From the IMG/VR virus record IMGVR_UViG_3300048597_000653, positions 1 through 53,624 of that record: DNA of 53,624 nucleotides; one strand, given 5' to 3'. The notes under the pieces are model-generated. The model made no database searches, was not told where the DNA came from, and saw only the letters and a list, made by a program, of their open reading frames with translations. Origin of the DNA: a virus (Duplodnaviria; Heunggongvirae; Uroviricota; Caudoviricetes). This document shows positions 37,368 through 40,793 of this stretch, in pieces (positions within the stretch are counted from its first letter, which is position 1; each line of letters begins with the position of its first letter). Both the position numbers and the translations under genes were made by a program.

Positions 37368-37375
37368 GTTTCTCC

Positions 37376-37579
37376 TTAGCCGTTCTTGATCCCGGTTAGC
37401 GTGTTCTGGCACCGATGGCAGAGACCGATTTGCTTTTCTACATTGGTCATTAGAGGATTGTTGCACGGCACAACCCGCAATTCATCCAGACCAACTGTTT
37501 CGCAATCAATGAACACAACATCGTCCACCACTTGTTGATGCACTTTGATGTCTAGGCGCTTGTTCGTGCAATGTCCCAT
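37376..37579 (-). CDS. small Cys-containing protein
   Basis: TAATG overlap; CHRC. Confidence 0.55.
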   Translation of the reverse strand: MGHCTNKRLDIKVHQQVVDDVVFIDCETVGLDELRVVPCNNPLMTNVEKQIGLCHRCQNTLTGIKNG

Positions 37580-38184
37580 TACTTTCCAACCTTGCTCGTG
37601 GTTGCTCTGTATCGGTCGAGCCCTTCCTCGCCGAAGCAACGATGGTCGCGGAGATATTGTAGTGGCTCAGATGCGGTGCCAGCTTCCCAGGCTTTGCGAA
37701 GCCGCTGTTTCCACATCCGGCCGTTGGCCTGGGCAAACTTGTTGAGGTGGTATTCCTCTTCCCATTTGAGCGACGTGCGAGTCCGCTCACGCTCTTCAGC
37801 CAGTCGCTTCTGTCGTGCGGCCTCTCGCCGCGCTTCACGCTTCTGATGGTCGCCGTAAGATTCCAGCGTGAGCTTGTGTGGCTTCAAAGCTTCGCGGATG
37901 TCCTCGACCTCGCCCTCGTGCAAGTAGATGACCTGCACCGGCAGCCCGTCCTTGGTTGTGGCGTGAATCAGTTGGTACGGAACGATGTCCTCGGGCTTGG
38001 ACAACTCCTGAACGATGCAGGTTAGTTCCTGCTGGCCAGGGGCGATGCCACGAACCTCTTCGATGATGTCTCGCAGTTGGCTGCTCAGCCACACGTCGCC
38101 GTCGCCATCAGGCTCGCCGGTTCGGCCGTACTCGATCGCGCTTTTCACCAGATCGAAGATGGATTCGAGCAGTTCATCGTTCAT
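37579..38184 (-). CDS. hypothetical protein
   Basis: RBS in motif copy B; C-terminal FAQANGRMWKQRL...W...LQYLRD domain. Confidence 0.75.
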   Translation of the reverse strand: MNDELLESIFDLVKSAIEYGRTGEPDGDGDVWLSSQLRDIIEEVRGIAPGQQELTCIVQELSKPEDIVPYQLIHATTKDGLPVQVIYLHEGEVEDIREALKPHKLTLESYGDHQKREARREAARQKRLAEERERTRTSLKWEEEYHLNKFAQANGRMWKQRLRKAWEAGTASEPLQYLRDHRCFGEEGLDRYRATTSKVGK

Positions 38185-38225
38185 CGTTTGCCCTTTAGCG
38201 GTTTCTTGTCTCGGTTAAGGTTGCC

Positions 38226-38254
38226 CGCCAGGTTGGGAGCGACCCAACCTGGCG
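38226..38254. other. perfect 12-bp hairpin
   Basis: cgccaggttggg-agcga-cccaacctggcg. Confidence 0.85.
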
Positions 38255-38443
38255 AGCCCGCATTTGTCACACTTAGGCTCCGCAGGAATCTCCCGCGGGC
38301 AAATCTTTCAATTGAGGCGCCCGACTGTGGCCGCTAAGCGAACCCCGTGGGGAACGGCCGTTTGGCCAGGCTAGTTGGCTTTGCTTGCGTCGGCCGGGGC
38401 GCTTGCGACTCCCGCAGGCATAAGGGTTGGATGTATGGACTGG

Positions 38444-39052
38444 TCATTGGGCCTCGACCGCGCGGAGTGCTTTGTGAAACTCGGGCACCAAGTCAACCAC
38501 GTCGGCCGCATCGGTTGCTTCGCAGGCTCTGCGGACAACTTCGATCAAGGATGGGACGGCGTCCAGATTGAGTTTGGCCGTTTCTTGTCCCGGTTGGCAC
38601 CGATTTTCTTCGATGACCTGCTTTGCGATCTCACGCGCTTTGTCGCACTGTTCGCTTCGGAACTCGTCTTCCTTCTCCTGGTCGCTCAATTCGTCGCGGA
38701 ATTCCTGGTACGCCTGGTTGATCCGGCCGATCAGATCGCACCATGTAACGCCTACAGCGTTGCCGTAGGTGTAGGCAGCCTGGGTGCCAATGGCCTTCTC
38801 CGGCTCTTGGCCTTGCCACAGTCCGTTGTCGGTTTCGATGTAATTGGACAGTTCATCGAGCAACTCGGCCGCATCCAGCAGATCGTAGAGCCTGTCAACG
38901 TGGTTTTCGTGGTGATAACTGTCACCGTCATCGTAGTCATTGTTGAAATCTTCGGACGCCTCGCCGTCGTCCACCAGTTGATCGACAATCTGATCCAAGA
39001 AGTGTTCCGCCATGTCGCAAGCGTCATTCATCGCATCATCGGAGTAGCTCAT
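38444..39052 (-). CDS. acidic protein, Ocr (T7 gp0.3)-like N-terminal domain (tentative)
   Basis: D/E-rich; ETDNGL...IGTQAAYTYGNAVGVTWCD resembles Ocr FEDSGL...ILQARIYEQLTIDLWED as recalled. Confidence 0.5.
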   Translation of the reverse strand: MSYSDDAMNDACDMAEHFLDQIVDQLVDDGEASEDFNNDYDDGDSYHHENHVDRLYDLLDAAELLDELSNYIETDNGLWQGQEPEKAIGTQAAYTYGNAVGVTWCDLIGRINQAYQEFRDELSDQEKEDEFRSEQCDKAREIAKQVIEENRCQPGQETAKLNLDAVPSLIEVVRRACEATDAADVVDLVPEFHKALRAVEAQ

Positions 39053-39084
39053 GGTGTTTGCCCCTTAGTCGTTTCTCGGTCCGG

Positions 39085-39486
39085 TTAGAGTCGGTTGGTC
39101 ATCACAGATTCGCGGAGCGCTTCCATCGCTTCCTCGACGGATTCCCACGCGATGGAATTCATGGATGAGAAGCTTTCGACCTCGCCCAGCATGTTCGGAT
39201 CGTCGATTTGGGCGAGAATGGCGTCGATGACATCACAGGCGATATGCCGATCCTCGCTGGTTCGATTTTCGTAGTGATCGCGGACAGTCTGGGCGACGTT
39301 CTCATCCACAACCCAAGGCTGCAACCGCACCTCGTCGTAACAATGATGAAGCCAGTAGCGGGAATCGCCCGTCCGGTTGCTGCGATCGAGCACATACACG
39401 CTCACGATCCGCTCGATTTGCGGCCGATCGGCTTCTCTGATGTCAAACTCGTGCGTGGTGTCGAGTGTCACCGCGAAGGCGTCCAT
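39085..39486 (-). CDS. hypothetical protein
   Basis: ATG (MDAFAV) follows motif copy D. Confidence 0.75.
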   Translation of the reverse strand: MDAFAVTLDTTHEFDIREADRPQIERIVSVYVLDRSNRTGDSRYWLHHCYDEVRLQPWVVDENVAQTVRDHYENRTSEDRHIACDVIDAILAQIDDPNMLGEVESFSSMNSIAWESVEEAMEALRESVMTNRL

Positions 39487-39517
39487 AGTTACTGCCCTTA
39501 GTCGTTTGTTGGTTCGG

Positions 39518-39769
39518 TTAGGCTGCGGGTTGCCGATAGTTCCACAATCGCTGGCCTGGAATTCCGCCGGGGAACTCGCCCATTTCAACGTCACCGCCGA
39601 AGTAGAGCGCTTCCACTCGCCACATGTGGCGGTTGTACGCTTCCCAGCTTGGAGTCGATGAGGTGAGCATGTTGTGATAGGTCCAGCGTGCTTTCGCCTT
39701 GGCCAGCCCGATCGCATTGGTGATACGATCCTCAAGACGGCAAAGGCGGGATAACGTCCCTTCGTTCAT
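39518..39769 (-). CDS. hypothetical protein
   Basis: GGAG RBS. Confidence 0.65.
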   Translation of the reverse strand: MNEGTLSRLCRLEDRITNAIGLAKAKARWTYHNMLTSSTPSWEAYNRHMWRVEALYFGGDVEMGEFPGGIPGQRLWNYRQPAA

Positions 39770-39774
39770 CGTTG

Positions 39775-39885
39775 CTAACTCCAGAGTCGTTTCGCGAAGC
39801 GCTTAGCGCGGTGGGATGCATACCATCGTCGCCGCGCTTCACCCTTGCTGCCATTTCTTCTCGGGCGCTTGCTTCCGTCGATCAT
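39775..39885 (-). CDS. 36-aa basic peptide
   Basis: MIDGSKRPRRNGSKGEARRRWYASHRAKRFAKRLWS follows a motif copy and fills the gap. Confidence 0.5.
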   Translation of the reverse strand: MIDGSKRPRRNGSKGEARRRWYASHRAKRFAKRLWS

Positions 39886-39889
39886 GGCC

Positions 39890-40330
39890 TTAGCCCTCAG
39901 CGCTTACGGTTAAGGCTTCCTGAGCCAGTTCAAACCACTCCAATCCCTCAAAGAAGATCGGCGCCCGATGGCTCGTCTTGATCCGCAGAATCTCGCATGC
40001 GTGGTCAAATTGTTTGCCGTAGTCGTCTGCGATGCTGACACCGTGGCCCATGCATCCCAACATGAGGGACGATAGCGCTCGGGCCTCATCGTCTGGGCCT
40101 AGATCCATGTGATGAAACACAAGGCCCAAATCGTGGCCCCATGCGTGCTCAATGCGGCCGATATACCGCATGACGATTGGCAACTGGACATCATCCGGCA
40201 GACGCGGGACGTGCTCGCAAATGTCTTCCTGCGCGGGAAAGCGTCCACCTTGCTCTTCAAATTCGCTCGCGTACACGCTCGCGTAGCAGGCATGCGCGGC
40301 TTCAAGTAAAGCTTGTTTTGACGGTAGCAT
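39890..40330 (-). CDS. hypothetical protein
   Basis: AAGGGGCA RBS. Confidence 0.75.
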   Translation of the reverse strand: MLPSKQALLEAAHACYASVYASEFEEQGGRFPAQEDICEHVPRLPDDVQLPIVMRYIGRIEHAWGHDLGLVFHHMDLGPDDEARALSSLMLGCMGHGVSIADDYGKQFDHACEILRIKTSHRAPIFFEGLEWFELAQEALTVSAEG

Positions 40331-40339
40331 GGTTGCCCC

Positions 40340-40525
40340 TTAGCTTGCGATCATCTGGTTGATTTGTGCCAAGTATTCTGGCTTGTAGATGTCCACTCGA
40401 TTGGTTGCGTCGTGGAGTATCTGCTTTGCGACGTGGGGAGGTATCTTTACGTCAAACTGCATACGCTTGCCGGTTGGTGTCGCGAGGATGTGAACCCAGC
40501 CGGCAATTGTTTGAATAGATGCCAT
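40340..40525 (-). CDS. hypothetical protein
   Basis: Follows motif copy E. Confidence 0.7.
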   Translation of the reverse strand: MASIQTIAGWVHILATPTGKRMQFDVKIPPHVAKQILHDATNRVDIYKPEYLAQINQMIAS

Positions 40526-40535
40526 GATTTGCCCC

Positions 40536-40793
40536 TTAGTCGTTATGCGGTCCGGTTAGAGTGGCGACCTTGCGCGGCTTGCTGAATTGCTTCAGGAGGT
40601 AGCGATATTCCTTGTATGTGGTGGGAATCTGTTGACTGACTGGCACACTGGCGAATTCTGGCACGAGCGCTTGCGTCCCCTCATAGCCCTCGTCGATGGC
40701 TCGCACGATGGTTGCCTTCTCATTGAGGATCAGGAATAGACGCCGCGGGTTGCCGTTTCTGTCGTTTCCTGCGTTTAGGTGGATTGCGATCAT
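40536..40793 (-). CDS. conserved phage hypothetical protein
   Basis: HLNAGNDRNGNPRRLF...AIDEGYEG. Confidence 0.7.
   Translation of the reverse strand: MIAIHLNAGNDRNGNPRRLFLILNEKATIVRAIDEGYEGTQALVPEFASVPVSQQIPTTYKEYRYLLKQFSKPRKVATLTGPHND

Follow-up and report, generated by a model that had tools for sequence, protein, structure and literature searches.

Since 2011, Cluster K mycobacteriophages have been known to carry repeated signals at gene starts that reach beyond the Shine-Dalgarno (SD) sequence, the start-associated sequences (SAS) (PMC3203893), and a survey of 188 genomes has been reported (PMC12699233). SAS are asymmetric 13-bp repeats that contain AGGAG, assume a single orientation and lie typically 3–7 bp from start codons that are mostly ATG; they precede non-structural genes only, the stop codon of the upstream gene is sometimes located inside the repeat, and about half of them are accompanied by an extra upstream element, the ESAS (PMC3203893). 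Their function was still undetermined in 2025 (PMC3203893, PMC12699233). Here, we analyze a bipartite motif, YTAACCG-N12-RCTAARG, that recurs at gene junctions in a 53,624-nucleotide stretch of DNA (the window), i.e., the first 53.6 kb of the 117,624-base IMG/VR 'provirus' record IMGVR_UViG_3300048597_000653. The closest described system is that of the Cluster K SAS and ESAS, and the initial annotation of the window, which presented the motif as an undescribed system, was too strong on this point, since SAS share its anatomy (PMC3203893).

Two further classes of repeated phage sequences are relevant for comparison. In the promoter-early stem-loop (PeSL) cassettes of T4-type phages, a strong sigma-70-like promoter is combined with a terminator stem-loop (Arbiol et al. 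2010, PMC2839356; PMC4122927), and the stoperators of Cluster A mycobacteriophages, which are sites for the L5 repressor, are asymmetric sequences of the 13-bp class that are oriented with transcription and occur in many copies in short intergenic spaces (PMC3203893).

A fixed-spacing motif at six gene junctions

The window contains six exact matches to YTAACCG-N12-RCTAARG, all on the minus strand and within positions 37374–40559 (Table 1), where 0.00 are expected from dinucleotide-preserving shuffles, and a scan of both strands of the whole 117,624-base record returned no copy beyond these six. They fill 3.2 kb within a run of co-directional small open reading frames (ORFs) of ~6.7 kb, the leftward arm, which is probably a single operon; the motif is thus confined to a part of the arm, and not found throughout it as initially described. 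Each copy ends 2, 6, 8, 8, 9 or 10 nt before an ATG, and the TAA cores of the two half-sites are 20 nt apart. In 5/6 copies the actual stop codon of the upstream cistron is one of these two TAA triplets, namely the first in two copies (39521 and 39088) and the second in three (40559, 39913 and 37399), where the motif is translated into the C-termini LTGPHND, LTVSAEG and LTGIKNG; the remaining copy, at 38218, is wholly intergenic. The initial annotation is confirmed copy by copy with respect to number, strand, exact spacing, distance to the ATG, separation of the TAA cores and usage of the stops (2/3/1), as well as in its expectation that the motif is not equally frequent genome-wide.

The 12-nt spacing between the halves, which was likewise reported initially, holds for all six copies, but the sequence of the spacer is not free, as ..A(G/C)AAACG is common to five of them. 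Likeness among the junctions begins sharply at YTAACCG and stops at the start codon, and the linker is A/C/G-rich and T-poor. On the coding strand of the arm, each YTAACCG belongs to a full motif with RCTAARG at N12. Relative to the ATG, the position of the 5′ half varies from −28 to −36, whereas its distance to the SD sequence is constant (12 nt).

A position-weight-matrix scan for additional copies, using ten simulated genomes as the null (maximum 17.5 bits), contributed three sites, i.e., a stop-less fossil that lies within a gene, and two weak copies upstream of start codons. In the fossil copy, both TAA triplets now read CAA, the SD sequence is gone, and the sequence is translated as codons 153–160 (QPGQETAK) of gene K; its identity to copy 2 is 87% over 23 nt. 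The degenerate copy at 37243–37268 contains a TAATG that fuses the stop codon of a 40-aa ORF to the ATG of a 143-aa gene (36814–37245), and the weak copy at 39781–39806 sits in the 3′ end of a 36-aa ORF, ahead of the ATG at 39769.

Unbiased clustering of the upstream regions in four records identified the motif family as the largest cluster that precedes unrelated genes, and in-gene control windows subjected to the same clustering did not give comparable clusters (0 or 1 qualifying pair per record). Comparison of the arm proteins showed that the flanking genes are unrelated to each other, without paralogy, and duplication of genes is therefore rejected as the source of the repeat.

A stop codon fused to a Shine-Dalgarno sequence

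The 3′ half of the motif (RCTAARG, usually CTAAGGGGCAAAC) is a TAA stop codon joined to an extended SD sequence (TAAGGGG) placed 2–10 nt before the start codon. It is also found on its own: CTAAGGGGCA is present without the 5′ half at 41688–41697 and 40334–40343 on the minus strand, followed in each case by (A/C)C directly before the ATG codons at 41684 and 40330, and the first ~2.5 kb of the arm (43.1–40.6 kb) feature the 3′ half only, with no full motif. Variants of the SD box also precede the starts at 43117 and 43020, and a TATAAT is located at 43145–43140 (minus strand), just upstream of the SD box at 43118–43133. In the arm as a whole, AGGG precedes 11 of 19 starts and TAAGG words precede 6 of 19, the frequencies being far lower elsewhere in the record, where the start calls are crude. 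Since the two TAA codons of a full motif close two of the three reading frames, an upstream cistron ends either 27–31 nt before the next start codon or within the next SD sequence.

When folded as RNA, the six junctions were no better, and mostly worse, than shuffled sequences (z +0.06 to +1.95), and inverted repeats were sought at the copies without any being found. Being unstructured and free of inverted repeats, the junctions exclude stem-loop elements such as PeSL, integron attC sites, RNase III sites and terminators, and hairpin or other structural models of the junctions were rejected on the same z values. A search of Rfam returned no family at the gathering threshold or at E ≤ 1, and sequences that could serve as an antisense partner in trans (CGGTTAR on the transcribed strand) are present at chance frequency only.

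Evidence for selection on the 5′ half

Copy 5 overlies the end of gene H, and while all 14/14 of its half-site bases are intact, its spacer resembles that of the other copies at only 3/12 positions. The homologues of gene H show 49–59% identity, and two of them, P0154 and P0157, have tails equal in length to that of H; at the position of the Leu for which H uses the TTA of TTAACCG, they carry a conserved hydrophobic residue, and both half-sites are missing from the homologue DNA. The combination of perfect halves, native H-family codons and an unrelated spacer suggests that the halves were written in place at the correct spacing, which argues for selection on the half-sites themselves rather than simple copying. 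The notion that the motif had been appended past the natural end of gene H, which arose from the homologue in the distant relative G003, is withdrawn, as closer homologues have tails of equal length.

Furthermore, the Leu residue of all three read-through copies is encoded by CTA or TTA, which are the two rarest Leu codons of the record (5.3% and 4.1%). The in-place halves of copy 5 and these rare Leu codons show that selection acts on the nucleotide sequence of the 5′ half, an element in its own right with a specific sequence. This is in agreement with the initial annotation, where conservation was assigned to the nucleic-acid level in a strand-specific manner tied to junctions.

Distribution among relatives and in databases

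All relatives available for comparison are distant. Those recognized at the level of the large terminase (G001–G003; 63–71% identity) have the 55–116 kb core in common with the present record and almost nothing of the region at 24–54 kb, which places the motif in an accessory, hyperplastic early region; the conserved core of the prophage begins near 55 kb. Scans of G001–G003 gave at most two two-mismatch matches to the motif, no more than the reversed-pattern control, and the motif is missing from the genomic contexts of homologues of gene K (L067, L068) and gene H (L117–L120). A lack of spacing conservation in relatives had initially been named as an observation that would speak against the motif; it applies in part, in that the relatives lack the motif entirely, but all of them are distant.

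G003 contains homologues of the arm genes C, D and H in a different order, and the genes behind the full motif have no counterpart there. It has a repeated A/C-rich junction of its own, ACAACAAACCACAACACAACGGGAGACAAC-N4-ATG, at ~43732, 46139 and 46618 on the minus strand of L101 (85% identity over 40 nt), which precedes unrelated genes, one of them homologous to arm gene D. In this phage group, unrelated genes thus repeatedly have a junction in common, with a sequence that is specific to the lineage.

The pattern TAACCG-N8-AACGRCTAAGG was matched in 2 viral contigs, 21 genome contigs from unrelated phyla and 33 metagenome contigs; these matches were all single, without a second copy and without tblastx homology to the record, and were treated as chance. 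A DNA search of a phage collection returned no match. One junction of the same layout, CTAACCGACAACAACAACGACTAAGGAGCCACT-ATG, in which the upstream stop is the first TAA, is present in IMGVR_UViG_3300027708_000503 (L008:79–104, plus strand, corresponding to L044:2032–2057); in this contig the arrangement of stop, CA-rich spacer and SD sequence occurs once only, and there is no protein homology to the present record.

Genes of the arm and genomic context

Searches of Pfam, NCBIfam and PHROGs with the arm proteins gave nothing significant, and a few marginal PHROG matches were to families of unknown function. Several of the proteins are strongly acidic, and the 201-aa and 133-aa proteins are ORFans with no relatives among 5.8 billion proteins. 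Gene K (38444–39052, minus strand) belongs to a widespread family of acidic proteins that comprises 370 clusters at 50% identity and is found in phage-like strings of small genes; neither Pfam nor PHROGs has a model for it. Approximately the first 120 residues form a conserved core, with Y3, W79 and T95 among the invariant positions, and the C-terminal tails beyond the core, which ends near residue 120, vary in length; a peptide-pattern search for close relatives of gene K found none. Judged from its sequence, gene K may have been lengthened by read-through of, or fusion across, the dead junction represented by the fossil copy, which is plausible although not proven.

A non-coding gap of 225 nt (38219–38443, minus strand; z −2.3 relative to shuffles) separates gene K from copy 2 and ends in a hairpin with a 15-bp stem (38223–38257) that lacks a U tract and has no Rfam match. 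The 36-aa ORF at 39775–39885 (minus strand) contains 13 Lys/Arg residues, ends 5 nt before the next ATG and includes the GGAG of that gene; it may be a candidate gene for a translationally coupled arginine-rich peptide.

Beyond the arm, two different genes at 52036 and 52608 on the minus strand are preceded by upstream sequences that are nearly identical to one another, CCACCTACGG(C/A)AAATATCGAGGCTA, and unrelated to the motif. Positions 1–23546 of the window are not of phage origin; this region is a mobilizable island that adjoins the prophage, and the record merges the two elements. The provirus itself lies on a contig of 383 kb. No motif copy is present at the structural genes at 62–80 kb. 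An MmeI-family restriction-modification gene (44579–47357, minus strand) looks split: the ORF at 45243–47357 (704 aa) covers the N-terminal domain, the helicase-spacer and the methylase, but no more than the first 80 of the 207 target-recognition positions, and an overlapping ORF in another frame, 44579–45532, may continue the MmeI-family C-terminal part, with a frameshift or an assembly error as the possible cause. The terminase is at most 27% identical to those of cultured phages and at most 29% identical to those in a sample of 401 Planctomycetota genomes, by which the 'planctomycete' label is neither confirmed nor refuted.

Table 1 Motif copies, related sites and other features of the record, with the arm listed in the direction of transcription
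Feature	Position	Strand	Sequence	Context
Leftward arm	36426–43117	−		~19 co-directional small ORFs holding all copies
Related SD box	43118–43133	−	CCAAGGGGCAAGCACA	Precedes ATG 43117, the first of the arm
3′ half only	41685–41698	−	GCTAAGGGGCAAAC	Abuts ATG 41684 of gene D (116 aa, acidic)
Copy 6	40534–40559	−	CTAACCGGACCGCATAACGACTAAGG	Upstream ORF 40536–40793 reads through to second TAA
Gene downstream of copy 6	40340–40525	−		61 aa; ATG 8 nt after motif
3′ half only	40331–40344	−	GCTAAGGGGCAACC	Abuts ATG 40330 of gene H; its TAA stops the 61-aa gene
Copy 5	39888–39913	−	TTAACCGTAAGCGCTGAGGGCTAAGG	Overlies final 7 codons and stop of gene H (39890–40330)
ORF downstream of copy 5		−		36 aa, Arg-rich; ATG 2 nt after motif; copy 5 spacer match to others 3/12
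Weak copy	39781–39806	−	CTAAGCGCTTCGCGAAACGACTCTGG	12.9 bits, inside null range by itself
Copy 4	39496–39521	−	CTAACCGAACCAACAAACGACTAAGG	First TAA is stop of 83-aa gene (39518–39769)
Gene downstream of copy 4	39085–39486	−		133-aa acidic ORFan; ATG 9 nt after motif
Copy 3	39063–39088	−	CTAACCGGACCGAGAAACGACTAAGG	First TAA is stop of 39085–39486
Gene K, downstream of copy 3	38444–39052	−		202 aa; ATG 10 nt after motif
Fossil copy within gene K	38572–38597	−	CCAACCGGGACAAGAAACGGCCAAAC	20.5 bits; null maximum 17.5
Copy 2	38193–38218	−	TTAACCGAGACAAGAAACCGCTAAAG	Intergenic; 5′ end 4 nt past hairpin with 15-bp stem
Gene downstream of copy 2	37579–38184	−		201-aa ORFan; ATG 8 nt after motif
Copy 1	37374–37399	−	CTAACCGGGATCAAGAACGGCTAAGG	67-aa Cys-rich ORF (37376–37579) reads through to second TAA
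ORF downstream of copy 1	37245–37367	−		40 aa, hydrophobic; ATG 6 nt after motif
Degenerate copy	37243–37268	−	TCAACTGGGAACATAAACCGCTAATG	16.0 bits, close to null maximum
DndB-like gene				Island
TrwC relaxase	3614–6232			Island
ArdC-like gene	7522–8460			Island
ParB	18239–19177			Island
Coupling-protein-like ATPase	19195–20685			Island
Large serine recombinase	22056–23546			Island
ECF-type (extracytoplasmic function) sigma factor	23818–24414			Prophage, in window
Two DNA methylases				Prophage, in window
Exonuclease				Prophage, in window
Large terminase	62215–63960			Prophage, beyond window
P22-type coat, tape-measure, primase-like and family A polymerase genes				Prophage, beyond window

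Discussion

The reading we favor, at a probability of roughly one half, is that of a bipartite start-associated sequence, private to this lineage, which acts on the polycistronic mRNA at intercistronic junctions. This assignment, made from sequence analysis, is based on five features: the copies are specific in strand and position, the 3′ half is an SD sequence, the TAA triplets serve as stops in two frames, the linker lacks structure, and the 5′ half is anchored to the SD sequence. The next small early gene would be loaded efficiently, either with a ribosome that has just terminated on the element or with a newly recruited 30S subunit, with YTAACCG as a second recognition element that is fixed with respect to the SD sequence and not to the ATG. 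Whatever reads the 5′ half would also contact the SD region, and may be the 30S subunit or an RNA-binding factor of the phage or host; the outcome would be a common translational setting for six to eight genes. Among the functions offered by the initial annotation, translational activation therefore fits best with the stop and SD sequence, the lack of structure and the position fixed to the SD sequence, whereas transcript processing, which was named alongside it, receives no positive support.

Several points weigh against this mRNA-level reading. We know of no mechanism that depends on a particular heptamer located 12 nt ahead of an SD sequence, and a strict two-part arrangement at a constant distance is more usual for sites on DNA, for instance promoters and dimer operators. 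The motif is missing from every relative found, so that no evolutionary conservation backs a function, and the spacer common to five copies could reflect common descent and not function. Moreover, copy 5 leaves just 2 nt between the end of the motif and the ATG, which is poor SD spacing.

A more specific proposal, which on the present sequences we regard as unlikely, is that the two halves would form a single RNA operator for one trans-acting reader, by which six to eight genes, all early and probably anti-defence, would be switched together as a translational regulon. As the reader, an RNA-binding protein of the phage or the host could then bridge the heptamer and the SD sequence. The 30S subunit itself is a less likely reader. 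UAACCG corresponds to the 5′ strand of helix 45 of 16S rRNA, and is complementary, with one G-U pair, to CGGUUG located 4 nt upstream of the anti-SD stretch; this comparison was made with E. coli rrsA (L121; ..GGTAACCGTAGGGGAACCTGCGGTTGGATCACCTCCTTA) as a stand-in that may differ from the 16S rRNA of the host. The identity of TAACCG with helix 45 is possibly a coincidence, the a priori chance for a 6-mer within the last 50 nt being ~1%.

The alternatives differ in whether the motif is viewed as inherited DNA or as a site for some other machinery. As a recombination linker, it would represent ~33 nt of shared junction DNA that hitch-hiked with gene cassettes, or moved between them, and that, beyond the SD sequence and stop, offers only short homology for shuffling. 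We find this doubtful, even if much of the genomic setting agrees with it: the arm is accessory and missing from the terminase-level relatives that have the 55–116 kb core, genes C, D and H are reordered in G003, and in that genome the full-motif genes have no counterpart while a junction of its own stands before unrelated genes. The spacer sequence common to five copies and the fossil, the abrupt edges of similarity from YTAACCG to the start codon, the two-frame stops that make the unit tolerant of the upstream frame, and the precedent of PeSL (PMC2839356) point in the same direction. However, copy 5 matches the others in its half-sites only, its spacer being coding sequence native to the H family, which means that this copy was not pasted in, and uniform decay does not account for 14/14 half-site bases beside 3/12 in the spacer. 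With ~70–90% identity over 33 nt, the copies are also a poor substrate for homologous exchange, and a breakpoint at the motif is seen in no relative, the apparent case in G003, whose gene H stops at the point where copy 5 starts, having been undone by the closer homologues. What stands of the cassette shuffling proposed in the initial annotation is hence circumstantial, i.e., the hyperplastic region and the different gene order in a relative, and it is countered by the in-place origin of copy 5. Least probable of all, and quite improbable in absolute terms, is RNA processing, in which an endoribonuclease would cut the polycistronic transcript at the junctions and thereby set the stability or translation of each cistron. 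Single-stranded, repeated sites on the transcribed strand at cistron boundaries are compatible with such cleavage, but hairpins of the RNase III or Cas6 type are missing, the arm contains no nuclease candidate, and there is no Rfam family; RNase E prefers A/U-rich sites, and the sequence here is T-poor.

Regulation at the DNA level we likewise hold to be improbable. A site for a phage or host regulator, either stoperator-like or composed of two direct half-sites (CTAAC/CTAAG) two helical turns apart, would silence or tune transcription of the operon, and would explain the strictly bipartite design with its constant centre-to-centre spacing of 20 bp, the resemblance between the halves (YTAAssG) and the restriction of conservation in copy 5 to the half-sites; stoperators are likewise asymmetric, oriented with transcription and located in short intergenic spaces (PMC3203893). 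Against this, the 3′ half is fully accounted for as a stop and SD sequence and stands alone before other genes, the copies are locked to start codons, which an operator does not need, no copy lies near promoter regions, on the other strand or elsewhere in the 117.6 kb, and no candidate regulator was found. Promoters for a phage-encoded or alternative sigma factor, such as the ECF-type protein encoded at 23818–24414, are a still weaker candidate; YTAACC would serve as the −35 and CTAARG as the −10 element of a short-leader transcript for each gene. The bipartite form with invariant spacing, the presence of an ECF-like sigma gene in the prophage and the repeated phage promoters known ahead of successive early genes are in line with this, as is the AAC core, which is typical of ECF −35 elements. 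But known sigma-70 and ECF promoters need a spacing of ~16–19 nt, and here the hexamers are 13–14 nt apart, with 15 nt from AAC to CTAA; sigma-dependent transcription begins 5–9 nt past the second element. Transcripts would also begin at or after the SD sequence, which would be left out and wasted even though it occurs without the 5′ half, and a distance between motif and ATG that ranges over 2–10 nt does not agree with precise leaderless starts. No copy precedes the sigma gene itself, where a promoter-like TTGACA-N17-TAATTT is found, and a consensus scan detected no sigma-70-like sites at the six copies. The promoter option of the initial annotation consequently fits poorly, given the 13–14 nt spacing and the omitted SD sequence, and its companion, a DNA site for a phage factor, is disfavored by the lock to start codons, the confinement to one operon and the role of the SD sequence.

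If the start-associated element favored here has a dedicated factor as its reader, the motif would mark out a small regulon, controlled at translation, of acidic ORFan proteins from an early accessory region, and would provide a compact, frame-tolerant stop-restart linker for synthetic operons. The weight of the example is limited by its mere six copies in one prophage with distant relatives only.

Among known systems with a recurring control sequence, the RegA regulon of phage T4 has one factor that recognizes similar sites where translation of several mRNAs is initiated, and a CsrA dimer bridges an upstream site and an SD site. Both are functional analogies only and do not imply membership, as neither a RegA or CsrA homologue nor a pair of GGA motifs was found here. 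Integron attC sites are imperfect inverted repeats that form a hairpin at the 3′ end of each cassette, in contrast to the present junctions, which have none and are only 26–36 nt long. Stoperators are distributed over both genome arms and act on DNA through a repressor, whereas the present copies are limited to one operon, locked to start codons and overlap the SD sequence. PeSL have more in common with the motif, in that both are repeated sequences between small ORFans in hyperplastic regions and plausible substrates for shuffling, but the sigma-70-like promoter and the terminator stem-loop of PeSL are both missing at the copies.

The Cluster K SAS remain the best match. Like SAS, the motif is asymmetric, keeps to one orientation and lies a few nucleotides before mostly ATG starts; here the distance is 2–10 nt, all copies are on the minus strand and the SD sequence is TAAGG(G/A)G. 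In both cases an SD core is combined with conserved bases that are unable to pair with 16S rRNA, the genes concerned are non-structural and from unrelated families, and the upstream stop is sometimes inside the repeat. A search with the SAS consensus GGGATAGGAGCCC at up to two mismatches gave one two-mismatch match, at 30503 on the plus strand and outside the arm, where 0.89 are expected by chance. The host also differs from that of the Cluster K mycobacteriophages, and while SAS are conserved across a cluster of ~350 phages, the present motif occurs in six to nine copies within a single 3.2 kb stretch and in no relative found, all of which are distant. The 5′ half resembles the ESAS in being a second conserved element just upstream, but it is a single 7-mer at a rigid distance of 12 nt, whereas ESAS are 17-bp inverted repeats with a variable spacer. 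What the present example adds to the SAS theme is an extra element held at a rigid distance from the SD sequence and not from the start codon, and a copy whose two halves were written onto coding sequence that was already in place, with rare codons as the price.

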